DNA of 64,000 bases from an uncultured delta proteobacterium (GCA_963796565.1 CAWCMA010000003.1:2454-66453), one strand, 5' to 3'; shown: positions 183 through 21,280, counted from the stretch's first letter. Numbers and translations: made by a program. The notes: a model not told the origin generated them from the sequence alone.

Positions 183-3100
183 CTATCCTCCGCGGCCCAC
201 GTGCGGGATGTGGCGGTCGGCCGCTCCAGCGACCGCGGCGGGGTGCATCGCCACCGCCTTGCGAATCGCGGCCAGCAGAACCGGCTTTTTGAATGGTTTG
301 CTGACGTGCTCGTCACAGCCGGCGGCGAGGCAGCGGTTGACGTCATCTTCGAGCACCGATGCGGTAAGCGCGATTATCGGCGTCGCTGAGAGGCCGTGCT
401 CGCTTTCCCACCGGCGGATCGCGCGCGTGGCGGACAACCCATCGACCTCCGGCATTTGTACGTCCATCAACACCAGGTCAGGACGCGAGGCCTTGAATTT
501 CTCGATCGCGACGCGGCCATTTTCGGCGACGTCGATCTGGTAGGGAAACTTTTTCAGGTAGGCTTGGATGAGAAGGCGATTATCAAGCGCATCCTCGGCG
601 AGCAGGATGCGCAGCGGGATCGTGTCGTTAGGCGCCGTCGCCTGCTCGGCAGGTTTCGGGAGCGATTGTCGGGCGCCGGTGCCGTTCAGCAGATTGCCGA
701 TCTTCTCGAGCAACTCGGCGCGCTTGATCGGCTTGATCAGATAAGTGTGCAGGCCCGCCTCGCGCATCCGGGCGAGGGAGAAGTTCAGGTCGTCAGAGGT
801 CAGCATCAGGATCATGGTGTCCTGGCCGCCGGCGGACGCCTGTGCCAAGCCGCCGTCGATCGCTTTACGCGCGACCTGCACCCCGTCCATGCCCGGCATC
901 CGGTAATCGAGCAGCATCAGCCGGTACGGGCGGCCTGCCGCGCGGGCGTGCGCGAGTTCCATGAGAGCCGCCGCTCCGCTGGCCGCCTCGGTCACCTCGG
1001 CACGGTTGCGCACGAGCATCTCGCGCAGGATCAGCCGGCTGGTCTCGTGGTCATCGACGACAAGTATCTGGACGCCGTCCAGGTTGACGGCTGCGCCGCG
1101 CTCCTCAACCGCCCCCAGCCGGGTGTCGACACGCAAGGCGACGGTGACGCGGAAGATCGAACCGCGGCCGACTTCGCTCTCGACCTCGACCCGCCCGCCC
1201 ATCATCTCGCTCAGACGCCGCACGATCGTAAGACCGAGTCCGGAGCCGCCAAAGCGGCGCGAAACCGAGGCATCGGCCTGGGTGAAGCTGGAGAAGATCG
1301 CCCTTAGCTCCTCAGCGGCGATTCCGATACCGCTGTCGGCCACCGAAAAGCGCAGCCAGGCGACGGGGGCGGCCACGGCGCCGTCTTCGGCCGCGATGGC
1401 CGCAAAACCGAGGCGCAGGGCCTCGGCCGGCGAGAGGCTTTCGACCGTGAGCGCCACCTCTCCCCGGTCGGTGAATTTGACCGCGTTGGCGGTCAGGTTG
1501 ATTAGAATCTGGCGCAGCCTCAGCGGATCGCCGATCAGATTCGGCGGCACGTGAGGCAGAATGCGCGCCGTCAGGTCGAGGCCTTTGGCGTGCGCGCGCA
1601 CGCTCATCGTTTCGATCGCCTTGTGGACCGTGTCTTCGAGGTCGAAGCTCACCGACTCCAGGCTCAGGCGGCCGCTTTCGATCTTGGCCACGTCAAGGAT
1701 GTCGTCGATCAGATGCAGCAGGGCGTTGCCGTTGGAGCGCATGGTGTCGATGTAGCGGCGCTGTTCGGGGTCGAGCGCGCCGTCGCTCAGCAGGTCCGCC
1801 ATTCCAAGGATCGCGTTCATCGGGGTGCGAATCTCGTGCGACATGCTGGAGAGAAACTCGGATTTGGCCTGAGAGGCGGCCAGCGCCGTCTCACGCGCGG
1901 CGATTAGTTCACGTTCCATCTCGATGCGCGAGGAAATGTCGCGCGAGATGCTGAAGATGATCGGTCCGTATTCGGTCTCGATCATCGCGCCGGAGACGAG
2001 ATACGGCACCGCGTGGCCTTTGATCTTGAGGTCGGCCTGAAAATTGCGCACGATGCCGTCGGCGCGCATCCGGCGAAGAAATTCCGCGCGGTCCTCGGTG
2101 CGAAGAAAGAGGGTGGCCTCCTCGATCGGATGCCCCAGCACCTCGGCGCGAGTCACGCCGGCGCGCTTTACGAATTCCTCGTTCACGTCGGTCACCACGT
2201 CGGCGCGCCGCGCGATGATTATGTCGGGTGTGGCGTCGAACAGGCTGCGCAGCATCGCCTCGCTGTCGGCAATCCGCTGCGCCGCACGTTTGGCTTCGGT
2301 AATGTTGCGCCAGAAGGATACCCTGCACGGCTCACCGCTCAACTCAACCGCCACCGTGGATAGCAGATAGGAATTGACGGTGCCGTCCTTCATCGTGAGG
2401 TCGGCCTCCATGGTGTGTGCGAAGCCGTCGCGATCCAGCGCCTGCTTGAGTTGCTCACGCTGAGCAGGGTTGGCCCAGAACTTCATGTAGATCTGCTGGC
2501 CGAGAACCTCCTGGGGCGAGTACCCCGTCTCACGAAAAAATGTGCTGTTGGCCTGAATCAGTCGAGAATCGATCTGGCTGGAGATCGTGATGATGTCGGG
2601 GCTGGCTTCGAAAACCATGCGCACGGTAGTCTCGCGCTCGTGGGCGACGCGCTCAGCGGCTTCGCGTTCGGCGACCTCGGCCCGCAGGCGGACCTGCGTC
2701 GCGGTCAACTGCTCGACCTCCGCACTGAGACGCCCCCGTGCCTCGCGCAGCGCGCGTTCATTTTCCCTGATCTGGGTGGCATCGCGCGCAACGTTGAGTG
2801 CATAAACCTCGCCGTCCATCTCGACCGACACGGATGACATGAGGTATGGCGCGACCACCCCATTGAGCCGAAAATCCACTTCCAGGTTGCGCACCCGACC
2901 CGTCTGCTTCAGTTGCCGGATGTACTCGTCGCGCTCCTCCGGACGCACCCAGGCGCCGGCTCGGGTTACCGAAGTCGACAACGCCTGCTCTCGGGTCATC
3001 CCGGTCCGTCTCAGAAGCTCGTCATTCGTTTCGATTACTTTGCCGTCGCTGAACCGGGTCAAGGTCACGATGTCCGGCACCGCATCGAAGAGCGTGCGCA

Positions 3101-3458
3101 GCATCGCCTCGCTCTTGGCCAGGCGCCTTTCCTTGTCCAACAGGGTTTCGATCAGGATGCTCTGGGCTCGATAGCGATCCTTAAGCGCCGTGAAGGTCAA
3201 CGCGAACGCCCCCACGGCCGCCAGCACCGTCCATCGATTGAGATAGGTCGATTCGACCACCCCGTCAGCGACGGCGACCCCGAAGGCAACCAGGCTTGCC
3301 AGAGTGAGCAGGCCTTGCCACTTCGCGCTCCACGGCACCAGCACAGCGGCGCCCAAGATGAGCACGAAGAGCGCCAGCAGCAATGGCTCCTCCTCCTCGA
3401 TCGCGAGGGTCGACAGAGTGCGGCTGGCAATCAGGATGAGACAGAACCCCATCGCCAC
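183..3458 (-). CDS. Hybrid sensor histidine kinase/response regulator (N-terminal TM helices, multiple PAS, HisKA, HATPase_c, two C-terminal REC domains)
   Basis: 1091-aa ORF. HisKA H-box 'SHEIRTPMNAILGMADLL'; ATPase G-boxes 'DSGIGI...GGSGLGLTIV'; two receiver domains ('ILVVDDHETSRL...LLDYRMPGMDG' and 'ILLAEDALDNRL...LMDVQMPEVDG'). Coiled-coil/PAS-like segments precede the kinase core; the N-terminus is hydrophobic. Confidence 0.9.
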   Translation of the reverse strand: MAMGFCLILIASRTLSTLAIEEEEPLLLALFVLILGAAVLVPWSAKWQGLLTLASLVAFGVAVADGVVESTYLNRWTVLAAVGAFALTFTALKDRYRAQSILIETLLDKERRLAKSEAMLRTLFDAVPDIVTLTRFSDGKVIETNDELLRRTGMTREQALSTSVTRAGAWVRPEERDEYIRQLKQTGRVRNLEVDFRLNGVVAPYLMSSVSVEMDGEVYALNVARDATQIRENERALREARGRLSAEVEQLTATQVRLRAEVAEREAAERVAHERETTVRMVFEASPDIITISSQIDSRLIQANSTFFRETGYSPQEVLGQQIYMKFWANPAQREQLKQALDRDGFAHTMEADLTMKDGTVNSYLLSTVAVELSGEPCRVSFWRNITEAKRAAQRIADSEAMLRSLFDATPDIIIARRADVVTDVNEEFVKRAGVTRAEVLGHPIEEATLFLRTEDRAEFLRRMRADGIVRNFQADLKIKGHAVPYLVSGAMIETEYGPIIFSISRDISSRIEMERELIAARETALAASQAKSEFLSSMSHEIRTPMNAILGMADLLSDGALDPEQRRYIDTMRSNGNALLHLIDDILDVAKIESGRLSLESVSFDLEDTVHKAIETMSVRAHAKGLDLTARILPHVPPNLIGDPLRLRQILINLTANAVKFTDRGEVALTVESLSPAEALRLGFAAIAAEDGAVAAPVAWLRFSVADSGIGIAAEELRAIFSSFTQADASVSRRFGGSGLGLTIVRRLSEMMGGRVEVESEVGRGSIFRVTVALRVDTRLGAVEERGAAVNLDGVQILVVDDHETSRLILREMLVRNRAEVTEAASGAAALMELAHARAAGRPYRLMLLDYRMPGMDGVQVARKAIDGGLAQASAGGQDTMILMLTSDDLNFSLARMREAGLHTYLIKPIKRAELLEKIGNLLNGTGARQSLPKPAEQATAPNDTIPLRILLAEDALDNRLLIQAYLKKFPYQIDVAENGRVAIEKFKASRPDLVLMDVQMPEVDGLSATRAIRRWESEHGLSATPIIALTASVLEDDVNRCLAAGCDEHVSKPFKKPVLLAAIRKAVAMHPAAVAGAADRHIPHVGRGG

Positions 3459-4504
3459 CGTCGCGCCAATTCCGCATGAACCACTTGCAATAGGTCACGT
3501 AGAGAGCCGCGCCCGCCAGCGCAATATCGAAGATGAAGAAAGGCCGCTCCAAATGGAGGAAGGTGGGCTCGAATCGCGCGACCTCCAACCAGGTGGCGAC
3601 TTCAAAAAAGAACACCAGGCCGAGGCCGGTCCGGAGCAACGCGTTGAGTTGCCGCAGGTCTGATTCCGATCCGCATGCCAGCGCGGCCATAATCCGCTCG
3701 TACCAACTCTCCGCGCGAACGCGCGGCGCACCGACGGATTGCGGCCGCTCGCTCTGGTGCGAGTTCCCGTTCGTATGTTGAGACATCTGTAGCGTCATCC
3801 AAAAATTGCCGCGGCCGCTTGTGAGAAAGGCGCACGCATCCGCCACCACTTCGATTCAGAGCAAGAGCGATACCCCGGCACTCGATACAGGGTGGCGCGA
3901 CCAGGTGCCAGCATATGGCCGCTAATGGCTAAGCAAAATCGACAGAAATCGCTGCCGAATCGAGCAGGCAGGTGTTTAGGGCAAGAGGAAGGTGAGAGAT
4001 CCAGCACAGCCCCGAGCTGGATTCGGGCGCGCTTTTTATATTCCTTTATTTATGTCCTTTTTTTCTCATGAAGTGCGCTTTGATAGTTTGACGGTCAGTT
4101 ATTCTGGCGTCTTTCTGTCTCATCTAATTATCACAATTCTATTGAGTTGTACATGCGTTTCAAGGCAGTACCGTTCCACTGCAACTCGGCAATGTGGTCC
4201 GATTTTTCTGATGTTCCGCGCGGTGATCGTCGGGCCCACCTGCCAACTTTGTCTTTTTATGAGGTGGTTGATATTCAGAAGGATCACGAGCGGGAACGTT
4301 CCGCAAAGAGCCGCGATCACAAGTCGAGAAGCGACCAAATAAGTAAGAGTTCCGGGCAATGCGATTATTGCGAAGGTCCGGGCGCTAGTAGCCTTTCGTG
4401 TCTACCGATGCGCATGCACACGTGGTTCCTGCGCTTTCCGATCGATATTGTCTGCCTCAATCGTCTTGGTGGATCGTGCGGCTAGTTCTTTCCTCTTTAC
4501 CGCT

Positions 4505-4650
4505 GCCGATTCCGTAGCGCGGAGGATCTGGAACTAGAAGTCCTCGCTTTGCGTCATCAGCTAATCGTTTTTCGTCGCCAGCGAACCGGGCCATCCGCGA
4601 CTGTCGCCGGATTGAGGCTCCCAGCCAGTCCACGATGGAGAGGCTCACGC
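4505..4650 (+). mobile_element. Degenerate N-terminal remnant of an IS transposase (rve-type family)
   Basis: Translated plus-strand reads '...EDLELEVLALRHQLIVFRRQRTGP...'. This matches the conserved 'ENLALRHQLAVLRR' N-terminal motif of IS481/IS3-group integrase-type transposases. No intact ORF follows. Confidence 0.4.
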
Positions 4651-4762
4651 TCGCAGTCGCTGTGACAGGTCGAAACAATCCGTAGGCTCTGGACCTTATC
4701 CGTGTCGAATTCCAATTCGGCAGCAGATGGGGTGTGAAATAAACCATTGCAATGTTGCCGCC

Positions 4763-4990
4763 AGGTATATGACTCAAGTTTTGCGCTTGGCTGTGCGCGG
4801 GTACGCCACTCCGTTCAGCGGCGTAGCTCCGGTCAACCCGGTGTGACACCGGTGTTGGTTGTAATAGGGCCTGTAATTCTCGAGCGCCCGCTCAAGATCG
4901 CACTGGTTCCAAAAAAAGTCCGATCAAAATACTCGCGCCGTACCGTCCCGATCAGTCGCTCAACGAAGCATGGGAACGCGGCGTACAGAG
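4763..4990 (-). mobile_element. C-terminal fragment of an rve (DDE integrase-core) transposase; truncated pseudogene
   Basis: Minus-strand translation reads '...SHSLYAAFPCFVERLIGTVRREYFDRTFFWNQCDLERALENYRPYYNQHRCHTGLTGATPLNGVAYPRTAKRKT*'. This is a typical rve C-terminus ('ERFIGTLRRE...YNxxRPHxxLg..TP'). It is preceded in-frame by stop codons, so the N-terminal part is missing. Confidence 0.6.
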
Positions 4991-5499
4991 AATGGCTTTG
5001 ATCTCATCAACTTCAAGTATATGAAGGTTCGCGAGCCACCGATGGAAGCGAAACAATGGATCGTGCGATCGCGAAGCAAACGCCGCCAAAATACCTTTCA
5101 TGTTTGTTTATCTCGATAGTGAATGCTCTCGATATTTCCTCGGCAATCTTCCGGCAGCCGAACCTTTGGGTCCAGGGCGAAGGCGACAGCTTGTATTAAG
5201 TGCACTGACTCGCATCGCTCATTCGCGACAGTCAGGTGGGCCTCTTTGGATCGGATCGTGCCGGTTGAACATGAACACTTTCCTCCTCGCCCTCTCAAAA
5301 AAATTGGAGGGCGAGGGGGAAAGATTCGCGGGGCGGAGGAGCTGAGTGGCTAAAGATTTTGGAATGCGAAGCCGCATCGCTCAGCGGCCCAGCGGAAAGG
5401 ATTCCTTACCTGGCCAAGGGCCGCGTGACGCGGCGAGTCTGAGGCTTCAGCGAAAGTATCGCCGGCTGAACTTGCTGAGGAATCGCCGCGCACCCGCAT

Positions 5500-5830
5500 G
5501 AGGATCAATCCTCGCCGGGAAGATTGGCGTCCTCGCGCTTTGCTCGTGGGCTCGAACGGTATTCTGAGGGCGCGAAGCGACTCCTCGTATGAACAAGCAT
5601 GAGCGTGAGCATCGTCCGCGAGGTCTCCGGAAGTCAGGAAAACCGGGAGGTGAGGAGCGGATATGCAGTTTGCAGGAATTGATATCGGAGGTGAGCGTCA
5701 CGCAGTTGCGGTGGTGAAGGCGGTACGGTCCTCGTCAAGTCACCGTTCTTTGGAGAGAACGCCGTACTCTCTTGGCTCGCTGCGAGCAAAAAATCTCATC
5801 GCCGACCAACGCCTGAGGACTTGACTCGAC
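5500..5830 (+). mobile_element. Truncated and frameshifted copy of an IS110-family element (left end plus transposase N-terminus)
   Basis: 'MQFAGIDIGGERHAVAVV...' is the hallmark IS110 N-terminus. The ~150 bp upstream (from 'CTCGAACGGTATTCTGAGG') is about 75% identical to the left end of the intact IS110 copy at 41.58 kb. The reading frame then shifts ('...GTVLVKSPFFGENAVLSWLAA' lies in another frame) and no full ORF remains. Confidence 0.55.
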
Positions 5831-5956
5831 CTTACGGTATCTTGTTACAGGGCGCTTACATTCCTGGCGGGCCTCGTACTTCTCTTGACAGGCGCGACCC
5901 GAGGGATAAAGGCATCCCTCGGGTCCGCTTATCAATACCCAGACCAGAATTCGTCC

Positions 5957-6817
5957 TTACGGGGTCGTCGCCGCGTTGACGGTTGCGTTGACGGCGCACC
6001 ATGCCGGGTCGCTCTGCGGTCCGATCTGCAAGGCGAGAACGTCGCCTGTGTTGACCGCTACGGATGCACCCGCCGGTGACTGACAGGTGAATGCCCCGTC
6101 AGCAATGTTGCAGTTGACAGCGTTGGAGCAGTCCACACTACCGTCACTGGTATGGCCAACGCACAGCTGGAAGTTGTACGCGTTTCCGTCGTTCAAGAGT
6201 CCGGGCGTGCATCGACCGTGAATGTCCGGTCCCGGAGGATTCACAACGATCCATATCGCGGAGGGATCACCGCCGTTCAGCCAGTGTTTGAAATCATTGC
6301 TGTTGAAACAGAGGTTCGATGCGCCGACGCCAGGCTGGCAGCCGAAGTTCTGCTCAAGTGCCTGGTAGAAGGTGCCATTCCAAGTGACGATGGCTCCCTC
6401 GTGGTATTTAACATCCTCGCCCCAAAGCCGATACGGCTCTTCGCCAAGTGTCACCAGCAGCTGGCTGATTGCGCCCGCCTGAACGGGAACGCCGATCTCA
6501 AATACAGACGTAATTGCTTCATCACAGTCACCTATGCCACACCATCTCGTATCGCTGGCATAGTTCGCATGACCTGCCGGATTGTCTGCCTTCAGAGGCA
6601 GAGTCGGATCGCCTGAAGGTCCTGCCGGCCCCGCCGGTCCCTGCGGACCTTGTGGTCCTGAGCCGTCTGCGGGAAGCGTTCCCCACTGCGTACACACTTT
6701 GTGGCTCTTTTGCAGACAGACGAAAGCGCCCGTGGCCTGAGCGCTGGCATTCGTCGATACTCCAACAACGGCAATTGCTAGCAGTAGCGACATTAACCAT
6801 CCAAACTTTGCTCTCAT
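5957..6817 (-). CDS. Secreted Cys-rich protein with a short collagen-like (GXY)6 repeat and a CBM5/12-like (chitin-binding type 3-like) segment
   Basis: Signal peptide 'MRAKFGWLMSLLLAIAVVGVSTNASAQA'. Collagen-like repeat 'GPQGPQGPAGPAGPSGDP'. 'YHEGAIVTWNGTFYQALEQN...W' resembles a ChtBD3/CBM5_12 core. The protein has 16 cysteines. A GGGGAGA RBS lies upstream of the MRAK start. The gene sits in an AT-rich, IS-scarred zone. Confidence 0.6.
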   Translation of the reverse strand: MRAKFGWLMSLLLAIAVVGVSTNASAQATGAFVCLQKSHKVCTQWGTLPADGSGPQGPQGPAGPAGPSGDPTLPLKADNPAGHANYASDTRWCGIGDCDEAITSVFEIGVPVQAGAISQLLVTLGEEPYRLWGEDVKYHEGAIVTWNGTFYQALEQNFGCQPGVGASNLCFNSNDFKHWLNGGDPSAIWIVVNPPGPDIHGRCTPGLLNDGNAYNFQLCVGHTSDGSVDCSNAVNCNIADGAFTCQSPAGASVAVNTGDVLALQIGPQSDPAWCAVNATVNAATTP

Positions 6818-7189
6818 TGTTTCTCCCCTGATTAAAAAAGATGTCACACGAACTTCGAACGAATCGACCGGCCAAATGGCGGGCTTCGCCTCCCTTATCA
6901 GCAGTCACTTTAGGCTCAAATAATATTTTGTGTCAACCGAAAAAGACTTTAATTAATAGAAAAATGATTAATGCTAATTACAGCTAGCTCTCACCCAACG
7001 CCCAAGGCGCTCAAGACGCAGCTTTCGGCACTGGCTGAACTAGGACAGCACCCAGCTTTCGACCCCCACTCGCGCCGACCCGGCGCTAGTGCAATTGTTT
7101 GTTTATGGCTGTTGATCGCTCGAAACCTTTTGGGCAGAAAGGGGTTGGCGTACATTCATGCTTAGGTCGAATGAGGCCGCGCTCGAATC

Positions 7190-7635
7190 CTACGTTCGCG
7201 TAATAGACGAACGTTCACTCTGGCAGTCAAGCGCGGCCGTTTTTCCAGAAGTCAGTTCAGAGAGATGCTGGGTTGATTCCCTTCCAAACGCCTGATCATG
7301 TTCCAGGGCGTCGATGCCCGCGAGGCGAACTGCGGAGGTGAGAGACCACTCGGTCCGAGCACATCGACGGTATCACCATCGGTGACGCTGCCGACCTTCG
7401 TGGAAAATCTGCTAAACGGGTTTGCGGCTTGAACGGCGGTCGCCGCGACGCTCGGTGCGACGAGATGCAGAACCCATGCGCCCACGACGAAGCTGGCCAC
7501 GAAAAGGCGGCCGCCACTGCGAGCATCGCCCAGTAGGCTCGCGGCGAGCGATACCAGCGTAGGCGAACATAGCGCTGTTCCACCAGCGAGCAAGGCTGCG
7601 GCCAAGACGATCGGAAATTCTCCCCAAGCCAGCAC
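7190..7635 (-). pseudogene. Frameshifted, truncated thermonuclease (SNase-like) gene
   Basis: The N-terminal frame gives a hydrophobic leader then '...KVGSVTDGDTVDVLGPSG', which carries the SNase 'DGDT' motif. The continuation lies in another frame: 'VRLAGIDALEHDQAFGRESTQHLSELTSGKTAALDCQSER...*' (the SNase 'RLxGIDAPE...' block). Together they do not form one intact ORF. Confidence 0.5.
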
Positions 7636-7703
7636 TTGTCCCGCCTCCGATTGTTGGGTTCACCGCCTTCGCGCAATGTTCGCGAGCAATCGCTCACCAA
7701 ACC

Positions 7704-8072
7704 ATGATGACGCATCGCGTGCAAAGCGGCATAATCACGGGCGTGCCCGACCGGACCGAGAGTAAGCGGCAGCTCCTGACGGCGGAGATGCAACGCTACT
7801 TCGGCGATACGTGCCCGGCGCTTGCGGCGCGCTGGGAAGCGACTATCGTCGGTTTGGCGCCAGCTCTTATGCCAGACCTGGCCGGGCGTCTGCAGGTGCT
7901 TGAGGCAGCCACTAACGAGACTAACCAGTACCTCAGGGCCGCTTTTGTCGAAGCCAGCGATAGCCACGCGCGGGCCGAGCCTCTGCTAGATCGCGCGCTT
8001 GCATCGCTGGAGCATCTCAACGAGATAGCGGAGACAATGATGCGATGGTTGGATGAGTCGTCGAAGGCGTAG
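7704..8072 (+). CDS. Hypothetical protein (122 aa), no recognisable domain
   Basis: Clean ORF with coding-like codon usage. It lies between IS and nuclease debris and the RepB' gene. No recognisable motifs. Confidence 0.3.
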   Translation: MMTHRVQSGIITGVPDRTESKRQLLTAEMQRYFGDTCPALAARWEATIVGLAPALMPDLAGRLQVLEAATNETNQYLRAAFVEASDSHARAEPLLDRALASLEHLNEIAETMMRWLDESSKA

Positions 8073-8394
8073 CCGCCGGCCGGTAGGAGAGTCCAGCTGA
8101 ACATCGCCCGCCCCGGTTGCGACGCTGGGCTCCTGGACCCACAAGCCCCTTCTGTAGACAAGCGCGGCTCTGCGCCGCGAGCATACTTAAAAGGAGCGCA
8201 GCGGAACTCGCCGCATTCCGGAATCTTTGTCCCGATTCAAAGCCAACGGTGCACTGAAAGATCCGCAAACGTGAGGCCGGTGAGGGTACTTTTCTGTCAA
8301 TTCACCAGCCCACCCCTAAAACTGGACGGGTAGGCAAGGGCGAATTGGATTGGGCGCGGGGCCTATCGGAGGATAGCAGATTGCGCGACGGAGA

Positions 8395-8685
8395 GTGGCA
8401 CCGCGCGAGTTCGTGCAGGCCGGCACGGCCCTCGAGAAACTCCTTGGCGAGCTGGCACTTGAACTCCAAACTGAAGCTGCGATACCGAGCCGATTCGGCT
8501 TTGGAGCCGCAAAATACGAGGCGGGCGAGTTCACCGATGAGCTCGCGGAGGCGGTACGGATCGCTGAATGTGAGCGCAAGATCGTTGAACTCGAGCGCAA
8601 GGTCGGTCAGCTGACGATGGAAATGGAAGTCGATCTGCTCAAAAAAGAGGCGCTGTTGGGACGCCGAGTGAGCGACGGGGCCTAG
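8395..8685 (+). mobile_element. IS3-family OrfA-like fragment (leucine-zipper part only)
   Basis: '...ECERKIVELERKVGQLTMEMEVDLLKKEALLG' resembles the C-terminal leucine-zipper region of IS3/IS911 OrfA. There is no HTH N-terminus and no orfB downstream. Confidence 0.35.
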
Positions 8686-8848
8686 CGGCCCGAAGCTTTC
8701 TCTGTCGCGCGAGGATGCCGAATTATGAAGCTGACGTTCTCGACCTACTACTACTCCTACTCCTGCCGCCGCGCGGCGGCGTGACACCTCCGAAACCCAA
8801 CCAGCAACGACGATGAGCGAACCGGCGGGGAACATACAAGCAGCGCGT

Positions 8849-9661
8849 TTAGCGGAGCGGCTCGACCGAGCCGACCGCCTTGATCGCGGTCCGTCGCGCG
8901 TAATTGAGCTGGCGCTCAGGTCCGCCTTTTTTTGAGAGATCGCGAGCATGCAGTATTTCGTCTCTGATTTGTTGTTCCGGAAGGCCTCGGCTCGCTGCGT
9001 GTAAAGCCCACGCCATGTCGGCGCGATGAAGGTCGCCGCTGTACCGAGAGTCCGCGTGAAAATCGGAGAGAGATCGCACTGAGTCGTCCTTCGAGGTCGC
9101 TTCACTCACTGTGCGCGTCGAGCTTTCCGCGCTGGCCCTGCGAGCAAGCGATTTTACTTCCTCGAGAAATTCGCGCGCTGCGGTGTAAGTGCGGCCCTCG
9201 CATTCATGCAAGCGAACGAACGGTGGAAGACCGGTCTGCAGCCGTCTCTTCGGCTTCTGATTCGTGAAGCCCGCAAGTCGGCCGAAGTGGCGCCAATCGG
9301 CGCTCGAGGGATCACCTCCGAAGCGGCGCGCCAGCTCCTTCGCGGCATCGGTACTAAAGGTGCGATCGAAGAGTATCCGTCCGTGGTTTAGCCACACCTG
9401 AAAGTTGCCCGGCGAAGTCTCTATAACGGCGGCTGGCTGAAATCCTGCCTCCGTCATTCGCGGGATCGTTTCAGCGCTGAGATCGTCGACCAGGCTCAAC
9501 GCATGAGTGCCGTGTGGGCGGACGAATATTTGTGCACCCCGCGCATTCTCCCGCCTCAGCCACGCGAGAGCGGCGTCAATCTGATCGGCGCTCCAGCCTT
9601 TTCGGAGCAACATCCGGCCATCCATCCGGAGAACGCCAATTTCGAATAGCTCGCAGCGCAT
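8849..9661 (-). CDS. repB: RepB'-type (IncQ/RSF1010-like) replication primase
   Basis: Blocks 'CELFEIGV', 'IFVRPHGTHALSLVDDLS', 'VIETSPGNFQVWL', 'DPSSADWRHFGRLAGFTNQK' and 'PPFVRLHECEGRTY' align with the RSF1010 RepB' catalytic domain, and a C-terminal helix-bundle part follows. This is from recall, not a database search. The N-terminus may be slightly truncated. Confidence 0.75.
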   Translation of the reverse strand: MRCELFEIGVLRMDGRMLLRKGWSADQIDAALAWLRRENARGAQIFVRPHGTHALSLVDDLSAETIPRMTEAGFQPAAVIETSPGNFQVWLNHGRILFDRTFSTDAAKELARRFGGDPSSADWRHFGRLAGFTNQKPKRRLQTGLPPFVRLHECEGRTYTAAREFLEEVKSLARRASAESSTRTVSEATSKDDSVRSLSDFHADSRYSGDLHRADMAWALHAASRGLPEQQIRDEILHARDLSKKGGPERQLNYARRTAIKAVGSVEPLR

Positions 9662-9827
9662 CGCGCAGAGCTGTTTGCGAACAATCGATCCGTGAAATTG
9701 AAGTGGGCATCAGTTATTGCTTCCGTCGACGCCAGGAACACGAAATCTCCTGCTCAGATTTTGCTGGTCGCTTTACTCATCGCCGTCGTGCTGGTGTCGG
9801 GGCTTTCGTAACGCGCGGTGCCTGGAT

Positions 9828-10976
9828 TCATCGGCGTCGTACTTGGAGCGCGTGATGGCATACCGATGTGCCTCGAACGTCTTTCGGGGCGGGCACACGC
9901 TGGCCGCCGTCAGTGCCGAGATTGCCCAGCCGTTGGGTCTGTCGGCCGAAGTCCATGGCGTTGACCCATCCAGCGCCTTCACTGCTGCTGCCTGCGCCAG
10001 CGTTCCCAAGCTGCGCAACTTTATTGAATCCGGTCTGGAGCGCGCTTGTGATGGGTCGAATCACTGTTTGCGCTATGTATGCGGCTTCAAAAGCATGGCT
10101 AAGAGCAAGGCCGATCGTGCCCCCAGCGATTCCTGCTGCCGTATAAGGGACGGCGATACTCACGACCATAAAGACGATGGCGCCCGCTGCGTAGTTGAGC
10201 ATTGCTGACACGGGCAGACTCCCCGAGCAGACGGTTGTGAAGATCGCGCTTGGTGGCAACCCGTAAGTGGTCCACCATGGAAGCGTCGTTGTAACAGGTT
10301 TGCAAGCTGCTAACAGTGCCGAAGCCCATTGGTTCGCCATCTGCACTCCGATGGCGAGCACGAGGTAGAAGAAAAGGAGTCTGACACCGACGCGGAGGAC
10401 ATAGCCGAAATAGCCCTCTGCTGCAGGGGCGGTGAAACGATTCGCGCCTAAACCTAGGAGAAGCACCCCGCCGCCCACCACCAAGTAGGATTCGATCAGA
10501 GTCAGAAGCAGCATTGCTGCCGTGATGACAAATGACAGAAGGACCACGAATGCGGACACGCTTTGAACGATCGCGAGCTCGATGTCGGTCATCAAACTCG
10601 CGTTTGCTGGAGCATTGAAAATGGTCGTGGAAATTTGGCCACCAATTTGCAGCACAGTCTGTGGGCTAAGAGCCGGCAACCCGGTAATTGCAGCGCCGAT
10701 GCCCGAAAAGCTCTTGAGGACTGCATTCATCCAGGAGAATGCGTTCACGATCATCAGGTAAACAAACCCGCCGCTCAGAATATGTTTAATGAGGCGACCC
10801 AAGAAATGTGAGGCGTCAAGCTGACCCTCAGCTGTGAATTGTATCCACGTTACGAGAATGTCTATCAGCAGGAGCGCAATGAAGAGTTTGAGTGCGTAAG
10901 GTTGGATGGCGGCACTGTATTTGAGACCCGCGCTGTAATATTGCGCTGCTATTGCATCGAAGCCGCTCATGATCAT
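9828..10976 (-). CDS. trbL: P-type conjugative transfer protein TrbL/VirB6
   Basis: Polytopic membrane protein. The N-terminus 'MIMSGFDAIAAQYYSAGLKYSAAIQPYALKLF...' is typical of TrbL, and the C-terminal tail is Gly/Ala-rich. It follows trbJ/trbK. The start was chosen at the internal Met (10976) rather than at the track's upstream start (11144). Confidence 0.85.
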   Translation of the reverse strand: MIMSGFDAIAAQYYSAGLKYSAAIQPYALKLFIALLLIDILVTWIQFTAEGQLDASHFLGRLIKHILSGGFVYLMIVNAFSWMNAVLKSFSGIGAAITGLPALSPQTVLQIGGQISTTIFNAPANASLMTDIELAIVQSVSAFVVLLSFVITAAMLLLTLIESYLVVGGGVLLLGLGANRFTAPAAEGYFGYVLRVGVRLLFFYLVLAIGVQMANQWASALLAACKPVTTTLPWWTTYGLPPSAIFTTVCSGSLPVSAMLNYAAGAIVFMVVSIAVPYTAAGIAGGTIGLALSHAFEAAYIAQTVIRPITSALQTGFNKVAQLGNAGAGSSSEGAGWVNAMDFGRQTQRLGNLGTDGGQRVPAPKDVRGTSVCHHALQVRRR

Positions 10977-10999
10977 GCTCCTCCAAAAGACGAATTGTT

Positions 11000-11188
11000 T
11001 TACGGCTGGGGTGGTGGCGCGCCCGGTGTAGCGTTGAGAAAGTTTGGAAGGCCTGACGGTGGGGGAGCTGTGAAGGCCTGATGATGTTCTTCTTCCGCAA
11101 CCCGTCCCTGATAGAGGTGCCAGAGTCCGTAAAGAACGGCACACACGCCGACGAGCGCGAAGACCATCATCATCCTTCTTGCGTTCAT
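11000..11188 (-). CDS. trbK: Small membrane protein in the TrbK (entry-exclusion) position
   Basis: 62 aa with a signal/TM N-terminus and a Pro-rich tail. Located between trbJ and trbL as in P-type trb operons. Confidence 0.4.
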   Translation of the reverse strand: MNARRMMMVFALVGVCAVLYGLWHLYQGRVAEEEHHQAFTAPPPSGLPNFLNATPGAPPPQP

Positions 11189-11315
11189 TCGAACTCTCCT
11201 TCAGAACACTTCATTTAATTGCTACGGCTGTGGCGGCGGCGAACCGGCGGCCGTCTCTAGAAAGTTCGGAGTGCCCTCAGGAGGGGGCGCGGAGAACAGT
11301 GCTTGCGCCTCCAAA

Positions 11316-11984
11316 CTACTCTGGACCTGATGTGTTGACTTGATTTGCTGCCGCTACGTTCTGCGAATTCATCTCGGCCATGACGAGTTGACGCAACATC
11401 TGAACCTGCTGTACCTGCGCGAGCGCGATTTCGTTGCTGACCTGAACCGCCTGCAGATTTCCTATCGCCGTTTGATTCTTGAGCTCAAGGGTTTGCAGCG
11501 ACGCCTGCTCCGCCTGAAAGTTCTGGGCCTGAGCCTGGGCCGAAGCGAGCGCCCCGTTCAGAGTGTTCAGCGTCATGCCGACGGTCGCCTGCGGACTCTG
11601 AACTCCCGCGGTCGAGGCCGCGTTGAAGCCCGGATAGAGTTGCTGAAACTCCTGCGTCAGCCCCTGAAAGGTGTACGAAAGCCCTTCCTGCTGGTTGATC
11701 AGATTTCCGAGGTTACCGAGCAGGTTCTGGTTGGATTGCCAGACTCCCGCACCACCGCCGGTCGTATTCTTAATCGCGTACTGAAGCTGCTGAGCCAAGT
11801 TGGTAACGGTGGCGGTCTCCTGCTGAAGCTGCTGCAGCTGACGGGCGAACATCTGTGGGTCGAAGACGATCTGAGTGCCGCCTCCAAACTGCGTGTGCGC
11901 CGGCGCTGGCTTTCCGAACAGACAAATCAACGCGGCCACGACCGCAAGGAATTGTGGAGAGCGTTTTGTGCGATTCATTGACAT
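11316..11984 (-). CDS. trbJ: Conjugal transfer protein TrbJ (VirB5-like)
   Basis: Signal peptide followed by a Q/L-rich coiled-coil ('QQLQQETATVTNLAQQLQYAIKNTTGG...'), typical of TrbJ. Positioned after trbE. Confidence 0.8.
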   Translation of the reverse strand: MSMNRTKRSPQFLAVVAALICLFGKPAPAHTQFGGGTQIVFDPQMFARQLQQLQQETATVTNLAQQLQYAIKNTTGGGAGVWQSNQNLLGNLGNLINQQEGLSYTFQGLTQEFQQLYPGFNAASTAGVQSPQATVGMTLNTLNGALASAQAQAQNFQAEQASLQTLELKNQTAIGNLQAVQVSNEIALAQVQQVQMLRQLVMAEMNSQNVAAANQVNTSGPE

Positions 11985-14494
11985 ATCTCCGGTTGATTGA
12001 GCTTCCCGTTGGCATGGAACGAATTCCCGTTCGCTCCGATCAACGCTACGACCCGTGGATCAGATTGTGGGTAGAGCTTCTCGAGGTACTCGGCCCAGTC
12101 CGGCAGTCCACGAATGCGAAGCCATTCAACAGTCCAACGGTCGCCATGCTGCTCGATCATTCGCCGCGCGGAAAGCACGTCGTCCTTCGAGCCGGCGCCT
12201 ATGAAGGCGAGCGCCGCAGGACCAAGCGAGAACTGAAACAGCCGCCGTCCAAGCGGCGAGACGTAATAGTAGTGTCGTTTGGGCGTGGCATCAGCGACAA
12301 TATCGATTTGCCGATCTGAGAGTCCGAACCGTCGGTACATCTCACGGCTCGCGGCATTTTTCGCTTCTGCGTTCGGCAGATAAAGCTTCGTCGGACACGA
12401 CTCCAGAATCACGTCGCGATGAGGCGAATTGGCGATCTCCGCGAGACTTTGGGTCGCCAGCACGACAGCGGCGTTTTTCTTGCGTAGGGTGCGCAGCCAC
12501 TCCTCGACCTTCGCGCCAAAGACGCTATTGGTGAGCATGATCCATGCTTCATCGAGCACGATCAGCGTAGGTCTGCCGTCGAGTCGCTGATCGATGCGAT
12601 GAAAAAGATACGTGGCGACAGGCACGACGACTTTCGGTCCCATCGCCATGAGCGTTTCGAGCTCAAAGGTGACGAAGCGCCCTTCGAGCAGCACGTCGTG
12701 GTCGGCGTCAAGAAAGCGCCCGAGCGGACCGGCGAGTGAGAAGGCATTCAGACCGTCCCGCACCGCATTGTCCTGAACCTGGGTGACGAGATTGCTGATG
12801 GTGCGCTGCTCTGGCGGACCTTCGCCGACAAGTTCAAGCGCCCGCCACAATGCCTTGCGCTGCGCGGGAACCAGTCGAACGCTCTGAAGTTCCAGCCAGT
12901 CTTCGAGGAGACTCTGCAGCTTCATGCGATCGGTTTCGTCGTCGACGCGCGCGAGCGGTTGCAGCGGCACCTCGTCCTCGCCGAGGTCGAGGTGTTGTCC
13001 GCCGAGTGCCTTGGTCAGAACGAATGCCGAGTAACCCTTGTCGAAGAAGAAGACCTGGCCGTCGGGAACTGCGCGGAAGTTTGCCGCGATCGCTCCGAGA
13101 GCGACGCTCTTGCCGCTGCCCGTAGGACCGTAGATGCCGGTGTGACCGGTGTCCCCGACGTGCAGGTTGAGCCGGAACGGCGTGCTGCCGGTCGTCGCGC
13201 CATAACAAAGCGCGGGCGTGTTCTTCGGATAGTAAGGGCACGGATTTATCGCGAGCCCTGGCCAGATACTTGTCAGCGGGAGAATGTCGGCGAGGTTCTG
13301 AGTGTTGACCAGCGGGCGGCGCACATCGTACCAGCCGTGCCCTGGCAGCGAACCGAGCCATGCTTCGACCGCGTTGATCGATTCGATCCTGGGATCGAAG
13401 CCCATGTTCTGGCAGACCTTGAACACGAGCTGCGCGTTCTCATCCGCAACCTCAGCACGGTCCTCCGTGATGATCACTTTTGGAGTGACGTAGCAGTAGC
13501 GGACCGCTCCGCCCTCGGCCTCCATGATCGCCTCGTCAGCGTCGGCAGCCATTTTGAGTGCATGCTGGTTTTGAAAGGCTGCGCCGGCGCCGGAACCGAA
13601 GTGCTCGCTGATGATGCCGCGCAGCCCGAGTCGCTTCTGAAACCAGTTGCGCCGGTAAACGGTCAGTTGGTTAATCGCCGTTCTCGGTCCGACCGGAATC
13701 CCACGAATCGAGTAGCGATAACATATAGGCAGTTCGCTCAGGAACGCGGCCATTTCCGCAAATGAGAAGGGCGGAAAACCAGCCAGAGCGACGACGCGGA
13801 CGTGTCTTCCGCCGACGCGGGGTTTGAATCCTGCGATCAGGTCCTGATTGCCGAGAATGGCATCCAAGTAGGTAGGCGTTCGCGGCACGGCGATCTCGCA
13901 TATTCGCCCGTTTATGCAGCTCGCGAGATGGGAAAGCAGGGCAGGCATTTGAAGCGCGGTCAGCTTCCACACTGGACTGATCGCATCTTCGAACTCGCGG
14001 AGTTTCTGCTTGAACCAGTTGTGTTGTCGCCTCCAGTGGGTATGCTTCGGCGCACCCGAGAGAAACACGCCGGCGATCCGCGTCTGCGCATCACTGGGCG
14101 GACGATAGGTGATCGTCAGAACGCATCTCGTCTCGAAATGCTGACCCTCGGCGGAGTATTGAATCTCGCGCTCTCGGTCGAGCGCCGTGCTGACCGGATC
14201 GGGAAACGTTCGACTTGAATATTCGACGCTCGGATAGCGGAACAGGTCGATGTTGTACTGGAACCCGTCATCGAGACGCGCGAGCGCTCGATTGCCCTGG
14301 GCGCGATGAGCGTCGAGTTCCTCGACGCTCGCCGAGTTGAGGTCAAGACCCGAGCACTCGAAAGCCGACAGAAAGGCGCCATCTTTGAGCGCGATCGTGT
14401 AGTCGTCGACTGGGATTGCGTAGTTAAGCTGATCCGGCAGCCCGAGCAGCTTGTCGCGCTTACGTCTTAAATCCTTGAACTCTTTGAGAAACAT
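11975..14494 (-). CDS. trbE: Conjugal transfer ATPase TrbE/VirB4
   Basis: 839 aa with Walker A 'GPTGSGKSV' and Walker B 'LIVLDEAW'. VirB4-type architecture. Intact. Confidence 0.95.
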   Translation of the reverse strand: MFLKEFKDLRRKRDKLLGLPDQLNYAIPVDDYTIALKDGAFLSAFECSGLDLNSASVEELDAHRAQGNRALARLDDGFQYNIDLFRYPSVEYSSRTFPDPVSTALDREREIQYSAEGQHFETRCVLTITYRPPSDAQTRIAGVFLSGAPKHTHWRRQHNWFKQKLREFEDAISPVWKLTALQMPALLSHLASCINGRICEIAVPRTPTYLDAILGNQDLIAGFKPRVGGRHVRVVALAGFPPFSFAEMAAFLSELPICYRYSIRGIPVGPRTAINQLTVYRRNWFQKRLGLRGIISEHFGSGAGAAFQNQHALKMAADADEAIMEAEGGAVRYCYVTPKVIITEDRAEVADENAQLVFKVCQNMGFDPRIESINAVEAWLGSLPGHGWYDVRRPLVNTQNLADILPLTSIWPGLAINPCPYYPKNTPALCYGATTGSTPFRLNLHVGDTGHTGIYGPTGSGKSVALGAIAANFRAVPDGQVFFFDKGYSAFVLTKALGGQHLDLGEDEVPLQPLARVDDETDRMKLQSLLEDWLELQSVRLVPAQRKALWRALELVGEGPPEQRTISNLVTQVQDNAVRDGLNAFSLAGPLGRFLDADHDVLLEGRFVTFELETLMAMGPKVVVPVATYLFHRIDQRLDGRPTLIVLDEAWIMLTNSVFGAKVEEWLRTLRKKNAAVVLATQSLAEIANSPHRDVILESCPTKLYLPNAEAKNAASREMYRRFGLSDRQIDIVADATPKRHYYYVSPLGRRLFQFSLGPAALAFIGAGSKDDVLSARRMIEQHGDRWTVEWLRIRGLPDWAEYLEKLYPQSDPRVVALIGANGNSFHANGKLNQPEICQ

Positions 14495-14512
14495 TGTTCC
14501 ACCTCTCCACCA

Positions 14513-14884
14513 TTACGCGCGGATCTCCTTTGGTATCGGTACGGACGGCCGGATTCGTGGTGGCGGCGCAGTAACTGAGGCGCGAGCGGGATAGTAGTCC
14601 TGCTGATGCACGTGCCGGACGTAGACCCGGCTGAGCTGGGGATCGAACTTCGCCGCCTGAACCAGCGCCCAATGGCCAACCGTGAGCAGGAACGTTCCCA
14701 TGGCAATCGTGTACCAGTGGAGCCCGCCGCCAAACACCAAAGCGGCGGCTGTGATCCAGTTGGCGATCGCCAGAGGCCGTTCCGCGCCAGCGAGAAGAAT
14801 TGGCTGGGTGAGCGATTGATGAATCGCGCTGACCCGCCGCTCCGCTTCGCCCATCACCCTATCCTCCCTAGAAGAGCGCTCCAC
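14513..14884 (-). CDS. trbD: Conjugal transfer protein TrbD/VirB3
   Basis: '...PILLAGAERPLAIANWITAAALVFGGGLHWYTIAMGTFLLTVGHWALVQAAKFDPQLSRVYVRHVHQQDYYPAR' matches the TrbD pattern (.. RYxxxYPAR). Confidence 0.85.
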   Translation of the reverse strand: MERSSREDRVMGEAERRVSAIHQSLTQPILLAGAERPLAIANWITAAALVFGGGLHWYTIAMGTFLLTVGHWALVQAAKFDPQLSRVYVRHVHQQDYYPARASVTAPPPRIRPSVPIPKEIRA

Positions 14885-15217
14885 CGAGTGGGAATAAGGT
14901 CGTCATCAGCTGTGTTGCGCCCAGAGCGCAGGAGCCGCCGAACGCAAGCGACGACATTTTCCGCACGCCGGTTCCGTGTTCGCTCACTGACCACATGATC
15001 CCGGTGCCGATGATCGCTGCGGTAGTGATCGCGTGAGCGACCGGACCCTGAAGGTCGTTCTGCAGAGTCGTGAGCGGCGCGTCCCACGGCAAGCGCCGCC
15101 TGCGGCGACAGCCGCGAACGCCTTGACTGGCCATACGAATGTGACGACCCCGTATGCATAAGCAATCGACGACGCCCATTTCCTCCACGCACTTTTACTT
15201 TCTTGCAGCCGCTTCAT
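14868..15217 (-). pseudogene. trbC: TrbC/VirB2 pilin gene with a -1 frameshift between signal peptide and pilin core
   Basis: GGAGG RBS then ATG at 15217. '[41 protein letters not shown]' (signal) is in one frame. '[40 protein letters not shown]...SLAFGGSCALGATQLMTTLF' (pilin core) is in the -1 frame. The switch is at ~15091-15102, in a GGCGGCGC run. Confidence 0.7.
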
Positions 15218-15249
15218 TTCACGTACCTCCTTGGTGATCGAATAAAACC

Positions 15250-16239
15250 TCAAGCCGTGATGGCTTCGAGGCCTTCATCCAGCTTCACAGGCGCAAGCGC
15301 GAATCCGTCGCGCGCGTTGTATCCAGCGACGCGAACAACTTCCGTGATCCGTCGTCCCGCGGAACTGCGGACGATGAATACGAGCAGGTTGATGGTTTCG
15401 GCTATGAGTTCCGGTTGCGGTGGCACGCCCGCCTCCTGCACGAGACTGGAGAGCCTCGTCAGCGCAGCTCGCGCGCTATTCGCGTGGATCGTGGTGACTC
15501 CCCCCGGATGGCCGGTATTCCATGCCTTCAGCAAAGCGAGCGCTTCGGCGCCGCGGACCTCACCGATGATGATGCGGTCGGGACGTAGCCGCATCGTCGT
15601 GCGGACCAGGCGTGTCATGTCGGCGCTCTCAGCTGTGTGAAGTTGGACCAGATTGTGAGCGCGACACTGGATTTCGAGCGTATCCTCGATGATGACGTAG
15701 CGTTCGTTCGGGTCGGAGCGCTCGACCATTTCATTGATCATCGCTCCGGCGAGAGTTGTCTTGCCCGAGCCGGTGCCGCCGGCAACGACGACATTCAGAC
15801 GCCGGTCAATTGCGTTGCGCAGAACTTCCGCATGGATTTCGCGCAGGATATCGTCGCGAACGTAGTCGTCGAGTGTGTAAAGCACTTGCGCAGGCTTGCG
15901 CATTACGCAGCAGGGTTTTCTTGCGACTGGTGGAAGCAGGCCTTCGAATCGAATGCCCTCGATCTGCAGCTCGCCCTCCACGATCGGACTGCTCGCGTTG
16001 ACTACCGTTCCGAGTGACGCCGCCACGGTTCCGATGAGGCTCTCCACCTGCGACGAGGCGAGCCGCAGACCGGCTTCGTGCATCCCCTTGCCGTAGGATT
16101 CGAACCAGACGCGCCCGTCCTCATTGACGATGATCTCGGTGATCTGAGGGTCGGCGATCGCCGCCAGAATTTTTGCCCCGAGCTGCCGTCTGAGCAGTTC
16201 GTCCAGGCGACGCTCCTGAAGCTGTTGTGCCGCGATCAT
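15250..16239 (-). CDS. trbB: Conjugal transfer ATPase TrbB/VirB11
   Basis: Walker A '[12 protein letters not shown]'. VirB11/GspE-like secretion ATPase. Confidence 0.95.
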
Positions 16240-16679: not shown

Positions 16680-16895
16680 AGTAATCTCTCCTTAACGCCT
16701 TCCTCTTTCGGCGCGTCGGCCGCGTCCTTCCCGTTCTCAACGGCGAATTTCAGAAACGAGAGCTGCTCCGCGGGCGCTGGCTTGACGCGGCGAGGCTTTG
16801 CCGGTGACGACCTGAACGGGCTTCTGGTCAGTCCTGCCGCTCTTGCGGCGCGTACTTCTCCGTGCTGTCCTTCGGTTCCTCGTCATCGTCGTCGG

Positions 16896-20210: not shown

Positions 20211-20215
20211 GGCAT

Positions 20216-20777: not shown

Positions 20778-21001
20778 GCGATCCGGCGGGGTTTTCTGCC
20801 GTGCTGTACAGTGTGCTGATCATGACTGCCTCCGAGGGGGAAAGGCCGCGAGTTCGTTGAGCAATCCGCCGAAAATGCCGCACCGTACCGCAGGTCCTTT
20901 ATCTTGCTCTACGAACGACCGGCCTTCCCCCCTCTCCAACGCACCCTTCCAATCCACTCCTTCCGCGCGCCGCAAAGCGGCTGAGAAATTCCTGAAAATC
21001 C

Positions 21002-21247: not shown

Positions 21248-21280
21248 TACATTTCTCCTTGCGTAATTGGATTGTGGAAT

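Follow-up and report, generated by a model that had tools for sequence, protein, structure and literature searches.

Why should an intact gene for a secreted protein persist among dead insertion sequences beside a conjugation module, and is the DNA around it anything other than the decayed edge of a mobile element? The question arises in a 64,000-nucleotide stretch of DNA from an uncultured delta proteobacterium (GCA_963796565.1, CAWCMA010000003.1:2454-66453; here called the window, with positions counted from its first letter), in which a zone at about 3850 to 8850 separates a conserved histidine kinase gene from a conjugative type IV secretion system (T4SS). The gene in question, at 5957 to 6817 on the minus strand, encodes a protein of 286 amino acids and is referred to below as the target gene. 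The zone is an ordinary decayed flank of an integrative and conjugative element (ICE). The target protein, judged by its sequence, is a new and very rare secreted protein that carries a carbohydrate-binding module (CBM) of the CBM5/12 type in a core without recognizable relatives, and that has an unusual mosaic distribution. The first-pass annotation of the zone proves right in most of its substance and needs correction in several details.

The target gene is intact and under purifying selection. A ribosome-binding site (RBS), GGGGAG, precedes the ATG at 6817, and a sigma-70-like pair, TTGACA-18-TAAAGT, lies at 6936 to 6907, about 90 nucleotides (nt) upstream of the ATG. Both belong to a leader and promoter region (6818 to 7000, minus strand) that also contains an AT-rich box (AGCATTAAT..., with ATTAAT elements) common only to clade A, the loci whose copies of the gene are 94 to 98% identical to that of the window. 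A leader motif (GATTCG...; GTTGATTCGNAG...) and the RBS GGGGA are also found upstream of the gene in clade A and in the 47%-identical clade C, the counterparts lying at 9800 to 10000 in locus L088 (clade A) and 7800 to 8000 in L087 (clade C). The conserved motif and the AT-rich box may be regulatory sites. Directly 3' of the gene, at 5885 to 5935 (minus strand), a strong hairpin (-39.6 kcal/mol, z -4.8) resembles a terminator but has no U-tract; it is conserved in the clade A loci L088, L089, and L004. The target gene differs from its L088 ortholog by 25 synonymous and 6 non-synonymous changes, giving a ratio of non-synonymous to synonymous rates (dN/dS) of 0.07; the ratio is 0.14 against clade B and 0.27 against clade C. 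The RBS, the promoter-like site, the terminal hairpin, and the low dN/dS together mark the gene as live, in agreement with the first-pass annotation, which had described it as intact and expressed-looking. The possibility that it is a pseudogene is ruled out by the ratio of 0.07.

The protein appears to be built for export. Residues 1 to 26 show by eye and by hydropathy the features of the signal peptide that had been proposed, namely a basic n-region, a hydrophobic h-region (Kyte-Doolittle values up to 2.98), and a c-region ending in ASA|Q, with no lipobox. A Cys hairpin follows (C34/C42, within the conserved motif FxCLxKxxxxCxxWG of the family alignment), then a (GXY)6 linker at residues 54 to 71, the first part of a beta-rich core (76 to 131), a CBM5/12-like module (132 to 189), and the second part of the core (190 to 286). 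The protein has 12 Cys residues and not the 16 first counted; they are mostly conserved across the family, those of the core including positions 93, 98, 219, 230, 236, and 274, and they probably form six disulfides. Conserved polar residues in the core are H83, D89, R91, E126/127, H222, D259, and D270.

The GXY run was correctly identified by the first-pass annotation, but a collagen-like character does not define the family. Most members have 5 to 7 triplets (5 in P0002 and 7 in L087), P0016 has none, and P0022 has a Pro/Lys linker instead; the six triplets of the target protein do not amount to a long array, the array is not kept across orthologs, and the Pfam Collagen model (PF01391) gave no match to the protein at E ≤ 1. 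This bears on the idea that the protein is a trimeric surface protein like the collectins, C1q, or BclA, in which the Cys pair would crosslink chains, the GXY run would form a triple helix, and the C-terminal domain would be a trimeric head. The target protein shares with collectins, ficolins, C1q, and Bacillus BclA an N-terminal Cys segment, GXY repeats, and a C-terminal globular domain, and the order of signal peptide, CxxxxxxxC, (GXY)5-7, and globular domain is the same in the window and in clades A, B, and C (L086 and L087). It differs from them in that its few triplets are dispensable within the family and in that neither sequence nor fold gives a sign of a C1q/TNF or lectin head. (Foldseek found no significant match to a C1q/TNF head, but the model searched is too poor for this to count.) We regard a trimeric protein of this kind as improbable. 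A further suggestion, that the protein is tail-fibre-like, found no support. The PHROG "tail fibre" matches are low-complexity matches that cover only residues 22 to 72, which is to say the GXY run, and no relative of the protein was found in viral contigs or phage records.

The module at residues 132 to 189 is where the protein can be placed, and here the carbohydrate-binding, ChtBD3-like segment originally noticed is confirmed at the sequence level as a module of the CBM5/12 type. PF02839 matches the target protein with 17.6 bits (E 0.004), below its gathering threshold of 26.2 bits, and matches five of six family members at the same place, all below threshold, with a best E value of 1e-3. 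When the family profile was searched against 1.84 billion representative proteins, only two proteins beyond the family's own relatives were matched, and only through residues 132 to 189. These two (P0024 and P0025; E 7e-7 and 3e-4) are CBM_5_12 repeat proteins to which PF02839 gives 123 and 90 bits, and hhalign aligns the 132-to-189 segment with their repeats at a probability of 97.6% (E 2.8e-12). In a profile search of the PDB, all matches up to E 0.24, at profile positions 121 to 156, were to chitin deacetylases of Vibrio or to chitinases and fell on their CBM12 or chitin-binding domains; three weaker matches were to unrelated proteins. The segment contains the motif W..Y..GD.V...G..Y.A...P...W together with this profile similarity to bona fide members, and W132, Y138, V144, A153, N157, P162, and W189 are invariant in the family. 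The domain of Bacillus circulans ChiA1, in what we take to be its sequence, aligned by hhalign at 90.8% with W132 on its first Trp, which we treat as a lead only.

Comparison with known CBM5/12 domains (the CBM12 domains of Vibrio chitin oligosaccharide deacetylases, 3WX7 and 4NZ1, and the chitinase domains 1ED7 and 2RTS) brings out both the likeness and its limits. Residues 132 to 189 follow the pattern W-x5-Y-x2-G-[DA]-x-V-x3-G-x2-Y-x-A...N...P...W of these domains. Unlike them, however, the module of the target protein scores below the Pfam threshold and sits within another domain instead of being attached to an enzyme; it also has an additional loop stapled by Cys residues (C160-C170), which in the window's clade contains an insertion of 14 residues. 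The pair of aromatic residues that follows the Y-x-A strand in the modules of chitinases has no evident counterpart. The two metagenomic repeat proteins, P0024 and P0025, are non-catalytic and share the repeat motif, but they are arrays of at least eight repeats without a Cys-rich core, whereas the target protein has a single copy in a novel domain.

The remaining core, about 150 residues, had no match in Pfam, NCBIfam, PHROGs, or the PDB. AlphaFold2 models built on 9- and 11-sequence alignments had pLDDT values of 30 and 36, which are too low for use; these low-confidence models are all-beta, with strands at 143 to 152, and the better of them, itself poor, gave no Foldseek match in the PDB at E < 0.75. 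A core of this kind leaves room for the idea of a small enzyme, or of a secreted factor with antagonistic or antifungal action, in which the CBM would target the protein to chitin-containing walls and the novel core would damage or modify them. Its patchy distribution and association with mobile elements, its atypical GC content at third codon positions (GC3), its strong purifying selection, and the conserved polar residues of the core listed above would all suit such a role. Against this, no similarity to a catalytic or toxin family was found in the four collections just named, and no immunity-like neighbor is conserved across contexts. On balance, we consider an antagonist or enzyme unlikely and favor a non-catalytic glycan-binding protein.

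The family to which the protein belongs is extremely rare. It forms three clusters in 5.8 billion proteins and yielded 11 matches in the 1.84 billion representatives by exhaustive HMMER search; the word-index and exhaustive searches together point to about five lineages only, and four metagenome loci carrying it were found. A contig scan with the protein found the family in none of 185,579 species-representative genomes. The first-pass annotation had proposed a search for homologs on plasmids and phages; tblastn found none in 72,556 plasmid records or 50,697 phage records, and a scan of viral contigs found no relative. Because the viral contig, phage, and plasmid collections yielded no relative, the target protein is unlikely to be a part of a phage or plasmid.

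Where the gene does occur, its surroundings differ from place to place. Clade A copies (94 to 98% identical to that of the window) lie between gcvT-gcvP1-gcvP2 and mobA-like-mutS-amiC-glnD-xerC in three contigs. The clade B copy (80%) lies between an alcohol dehydrogenase gene and a GAF kinase gene, and the two clade C contigs (47%; L086 and L087) have lon-hupB-tRNA-Val on one side of the gene and a CsbD-like gene on the other, with a tyrosine-integrase element upstream of the gene in L086 where L087 has hupB and tRNA-Val. In L090 and L092 (96% in the interior of the coding sequence [CDS]), the flanks are IS21 and IS3 elements and a YqaJ/ERF pair, and the copies in the window and in L091, a second assembly, are ICE-adjacent. 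Near-identical copies (94 to 96.5%) occupy four kinds of context; two samples, ERZ25039467 and ERZ25039537, each yielded two of the contexts. Homology between contexts is confined to the gene, and its breakpoints fall at or inside the CDS and differ for each pair. Between the window and L088 it begins 19 nt before the ATG, ends 58 nt beyond the stop codon, and amounts to 94.6% identity, with the leader at only 31 to 60%; between the window and L090 or L092 it covers only 5979 to 6772, within the CDS, and the part encoding the signal peptide differs. The gene's GC3 is 0.62 to 0.69 in every context, against 0.78 to 0.89 in neighboring core genes, a gap of 0.15 to 0.2 that applies to the high-GC contexts (the clade B locus has a lower GC content throughout).

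Near-identical coding sequences with unrelated flanks, pair-specific breakpoints, and low GC3 fit spread by recombination or gene conversion, and they suggest an accessory gene moved in this way better than they suggest vertical inheritance or a cassette with fixed ends. An integron cassette or a transposable unit with fixed ends is ruled out by breakpoints that differ between pairs of loci. The gene could also be an ordinary, vertically inherited chromosomal gene that lies near mobile DNA here by chance. Its position between gcvP2 and mutS in the three clade A contigs, and between tRNA-Val/hupB and the CsbD-like gene in the two clade C contigs, speaks for this. Vertical descent sits poorly, however, with near-identical copies in four kinds of context whose homology is confined to the CDS, with the GC3 deficit in every high-GC context, and with the absence of the gene from all the species-representative genomes and from almost all of the 1.84 billion protein representatives; we judge it fairly improbable. 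The first-pass annotation had tied its view of a mobile carbohydrate-binding protein to a CBM-like predicted structure and to homologs outside the core chromosome of the lineage, and the outcome is mixed. The models (pLDDT 30 and 36) are uninformative, and some close homologs are chromosomal (gcvP-mutS and tRNA-Val/lon-hupB) while others are flanked by IS21/IS3 elements or by an ICE.

The proximity of the gene to the conjugation module is real, as had been claimed for the zone as a whole; a break in synteny adjoins a conjugative T4SS/relaxase module, and gene and module are linked both in the window and in L091. The module's first intact gene encodes a RepB-type primase (8849 to 9661, minus strand; PF16793 E 2.2e-34). 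The genes for VirB6/TrbL, VirB4, VirB11, the type IV coupling protein (T4CP), the relaxase (MobA/VirD2-type), a TraD-like protein, VirB10/TrbI, VirB9, and VirB8 follow at 9828 to 24068 on the same strand, and TrbC and VirB3 are called in the L091 copy. The T4SS core, coupling protein, relaxase, and RepB primase by which an ICE is recognized are thus all in the module. The T4CP gene is split (16896 to 18810, minus strand) into two overlapping open reading frames (ORFs), 17236 to 18810 covering profile positions 2 to 122 and 16896 to 17951 covering 134 to 452. No integrase domain was found in the scanned ORFs between 3.85 and 24.8 kb, and no excisionase or flanking direct repeats were found in the window. 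With its integrase and attachment (att) repeats gone and its coupling-protein gene split, the element looks immobilized and may be unable to move.

Just outside VirB8, at 24208 to 24284 (plus strand), lies a sequence that resembles tRNA-Lys(UUU) but scores only 17.8 bits where 29 is the threshold; its T-arm and 3' acceptor strand are intact and its 5' half is degenerate. It may be the remnant of an attachment site. The window holds no second copy of it; ARAGORN called no tRNA in the window, and neither the window nor the zone matched an RNA family of Rfam.

How the zone relates to the module is best seen from L091 (ENA sample ERZ25039467), in which window positions 4988 to 16821 recur at 96% identity overall and at 98.3% across 4988 to 9700. 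The match takes in the stub of an IS110 element, the target gene (with 4 substitutions), a 122-amino-acid ORF, the two halves of a transposase OrfA gene, and a nuclease pseudogene, all described below. Its left limit, 4988, falls inside a transposase remnant, and to the left of this point, where the window has rve fragments and the kinase gene, L091 has an IS21 element. The two assemblies differ by an indel of 32 nt at 7001 to 7190, between the target promoter and the nuclease pseudogene; elsewhere the block is 98 to 100% identical. The recurrence implies that the pseudogene states are probably real, that the block from 4988 rightward was inherited or transferred with the T4SS, and that the conjugation module carries the zone, with the target gene and the dead nuclease, along with it. 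The variable junction is 4155 to 4988. A megablast of the whole zone against plasmids gave no match.

Such linkage raises the question of whether the gene is a functional part of the conjugative element, for instance, an adhesin of the mating pair or a protein for surface exclusion. The RepB/T4SS genes are 2 kb away, and L091 preserves this linkage at 98% identity. Coding sequences that are 94 to 98% identical nevertheless stand at the gcvP-mutS and the IS21/IS3 and YqaJ/ERF loci with no T4SS gene within 10 kb on either side, dead insertion sequence (IS) fragments and a dead nuclease gene separate the target gene from the T4SS genes, and none of the plasmid records searched yielded a homolog. 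A role in conjugation is therefore very improbable, and we prefer to see the gene as an accessory passenger of the block.

The zone itself is littered with remains of IS elements, and of the four remnants initially proposed, three stand. The first is the C-terminal remnant of an rve (IS481/IS3-type) transposase, frameshifted, at 4777 to 5003 (minus strand); its match to PF13683 (rve_3; E 1.3e-9) exceeds the model's cutoff, and it also matches NF033577, the IS481 model (5e-10). The second is a frameshifted 5' stub of the IS110 family at 5480 to 5830 (plus strand), which consists of the noncoding leader and the first ~50 codons. Its profile matches (NF033542 E 2.6e-4 and PF01548 E 5.4e-3) fall below cutoff, and its identity is backed by a DNA alignment to the intact IS110 element at 41556 to 42950 (aligned at 41540 to 41960). 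The third is a broken OrfA gene of the IS3/IS66 type. Its helix-turn-helix half is at 8350 to 8484 on the minus strand (PF01527 [HTH_Tnp_1] E 4.7e-3; NF047595 2.8e-4) and its leucine-zipper half is at 8506 to 8682 on the plus strand (blastn to annotated plasmid transposases; weak NCBIfam matches). The profile matches are again below cutoff, and the DNA alignments to plasmid transposases back the identity. The halves stand back to back on opposite strands with 21 bp between them, and the break falls exactly between ...SRNLL and KYEAGEF..., which suggests a small inversion inside one gene.

The remnant that found no support is the proposed rve N-terminal fragment, a putative transposase peptide (LELEVLALRHQLIVFRRQ...) from six-frame translation of 4489 to 4662 (plus strand). 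It had no match in Pfam or NCBIfam or by plasmid tblastn. Its LALRHQL...RRQR motif may resemble the N termini of some integrase-core transposases. The one match to the peptide, in L031, falls within a kinase gene and was dismissed as spurious. As a separate observation, the IS110 stub (5480 to 5665) and the intact copy (41540 to 41730) have noncoding 5' DNA in common, e.g., GCTCGAACGGTATYCTGAGG. In the IS110 family, the noncoding end encodes the guide (bridge) RNA.

The claim that the zone contains a frameshifted and truncated thermonuclease gene of plasmid type finds weak but consistent support. The SNase/thermonuclease-like pseudogene (7193 to 7635, minus strand) encodes, in order, an N-terminal hydrophobic segment, DGDT, a frameshift, RLAGIDALE, and stops. 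Its identity is supported by sequence similarity (PF00565 E 0.025, the EcnA model 0.0056, and weak tblastn matches to plasmid thermonucleases 2e-3), and the PF00565 score of 15.5 bits against a cutoff of 21 indicates that no intact domain is left. The frameshift is probably real because the pseudogene is 100% identical in L091, frameshift included. Next to it, a 122-amino-acid ORF (7704 to 8072, plus strand) is 99.7% conserved in L091 and matched no family in Pfam, NCBIfam, or PHROGs.

The AT-rich dips that had drawn attention to the zone were measured and found to be as marked as first described. The GC content is 0.46 to 0.47 at 3901 to 4350 and 0.447 at 6751 to 7050, against 0.616 for the window. 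As signs of foreign scars, though, they do not serve, since one dip is the kinase upstream region, the other is the promoter and leader of the target gene, and both are AT-rich in relatives too. The segment at 3850 to 4153 (GC 0.48) aligns by blastn with the DNA upstream of the L006 ortholog of the kinase gene and is thus the kinase gene's own upstream region; its L006 counterpart has a GC content of 0.474 in a locus of 0.599. Likewise, 6818 to 7000 has a GC content of 0.404 and its L088 counterpart one of 0.368 in a locus of 0.651. Both dips are, on this comparison, ordinary native promoter or regulatory DNA.

On its left, the zone is anchored to the chromosome by a hybrid PAS histidine kinase/response-regulator gene (183 to 3849, minus strand; identified with Pfam) in two frames, with an ORF at 183 to 3458 that continues to ~3849 in another frame after what appears to be a frameshift near 3460. 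The L005, L006, and L007 orthologs (72 to 79% amino acid identity) are each an uninterrupted single frame, and the frameshift in the window may be real decay or an assembly indel. These best orthologs come from soil metagenome-assembled genomes labeled "uncultured delta proteobacterium," and the next best (58%) is from a "Candidatus Binataceae bacterium"; the host is probably an uncultured soil bacterium of the Binatia. Synteny by blastn with the relatives' kinase loci ends at 4030 (L005), 4153 (L006), and 3705 (L007). Beyond the kinase gene, L005 encodes tRNA-Ser, a CBS protein, and a cupin, and L006 encodes an aldose epimerase; in L007 (4382 to 5730), a tyrosine integrase with Phage_integrase and Arm DNA-binding domains and tRNA-Ser(GCT) directly adjoin the kinase ortholog. 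The differing neighbors identify the kinase flank as a variable spot, and the integrase and tRNA-Ser(GCT) of L007 point to a hot spot of integration. The tRNA-Ser(GCT) of the relatives' flank is absent from the window. A cupin gene at 46608 to 47057 (minus strand) of the window is 90% identical in amino acids to that of L005 (5283 to 5810) in inverted relative orientation, which implies that ~42 kb of the window (4.15 to 46.6 kb) is inserted or rearranged relative to L005.

Taken together, these results would be explained as follows. The DNA from ~4155 to 8850 would be a decayed arm, lacking an integrase, of a genomic island that centers on the conjugative T4SS/relaxase/RepB module and is situated in a variable chromosomal spot beside the conserved kinase gene. 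The dead thermonuclease gene and the dead IS fragments, of which there are at least three, would be the residue of IS activity. As in other decay zones of ICEs and genomic islands, a conserved chromosomal gene stands on one side and a T4SS/relaxase module on the other, IS fragments are numerous, a dead plasmid-type thermonuclease gene is present, a tRNA-like remnant lies at the far end, and the relatives' site has an integrase and a tRNA; unlike an intact ICE, the element lacks integrase, excisionase, and att repeats, and its coupling-protein gene is split. The target protein would be exported by the Sec system, with disulfides forming in the periplasm or outside the cell, and the Gly-Pro-rich (GXY)6 run would be a spacer between the Cys-stapled hairpin and the core. 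A CBM5/12-type module would be inserted in an otherwise unrecognizable all-beta core and, through W132, Y138, and neighboring aromatic residues, would bind an insoluble beta-1,4 glycan of the chitin or cellulose type or a cell wall glycan. The protein would then be a non-catalytic, lectin- or adhesin-like accessory protein rather than a component of conjugation or of a phage, and its gene an accessory gene that recombined between loci and strains, the window's copy having joined the ICE-linked block. Zone, gene, function, and recombination history taken jointly, we give this explanation an even chance of being right in full.

Several points weigh against it. The PF02839 score is under the gathering threshold, the signal peptide was judged by eye and hydropathy alone, and neither fold nor binding finds support in structure, given the low pLDDT values and the empty Foldseek search. 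The ~150-residue core has no detectable relative and could carry a catalytic or toxic activity, and no conserved neighbor gene points to a pathway. The boundaries of the ICE are undefined, with neither an integrase nor direct repeats to mark them. Some frameshifts may be assembly errors, e.g., those in the window's kinase and T4CP genes, as L091 and L088 contain fragmented housekeeping and T4SS genes that are intact elsewhere. Finally, the assignment of the host to the Binatia is read from the labels of the best kinase orthologs.

A bolder version, which we put forward only tentatively, is that the protein represents a new extracytoplasmic fold family in which a CBM5/12 module is grafted into a disulfide-stapled beta core beyond the reach of present structure prediction, and that gene conversion or recombination copies the interior of its CDS between unrelated loci and strains of uncultured Binatia without a dedicated mobile element. 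If so, it would be a gene-sized mobile lectin under strong selection. Short of that, an extremely rare secreted family from an uncultured soil phylum, with a recognizable glycan-binding module in an unrecognized scaffold, is of modest value, and if the binding of chitin or cellulose is true, it adds a small new non-catalytic binder. The mosaic of near-identical CDS interiors, unrelated flanks, and low GC3 everywhere is a clean, small case of the movement of a single accessory gene in uncultured bacteria. The finding touches no long-standing open question.

A few minor observations concern the family's loci and the wider window. The L089 copy of the gene (9977 to 10837) has a stop at codon 7 (W7*), and its called start is a Met further downstream, which leaves out the signal peptide's n-region; the copy may be an inactivated allele or a read error. 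In clade A, a 102-amino-acid lipoprotein-like ORF lies upstream of the gene, and it has no counterpart in the window. The window also encodes TonB receptors with a carboxypeptidase-regulatory domain and, at 34775 to 36082 (plus strand), the heavy chain of methylamine dehydrogenase, near genes for luciferase-like monooxygenases and a sigma/NrsF anti-sigma pair. The methylamine dehydrogenase gene and the TonB receptors fit with the methylotrophy described for Binatota (PMC8262859). Lastly, a gene for a large secreted DUF7948 protein (24864 to 28289) has an ortholog of 76% amino acid identity at 14162 to 16807 in L087, only 5.4 kb from that locus's clade C copy of the target gene. The window has the conjugation module between the corresponding pair, at a distance of 18 kb and with the target gene inverted, and the pairing may be vestigial synteny.

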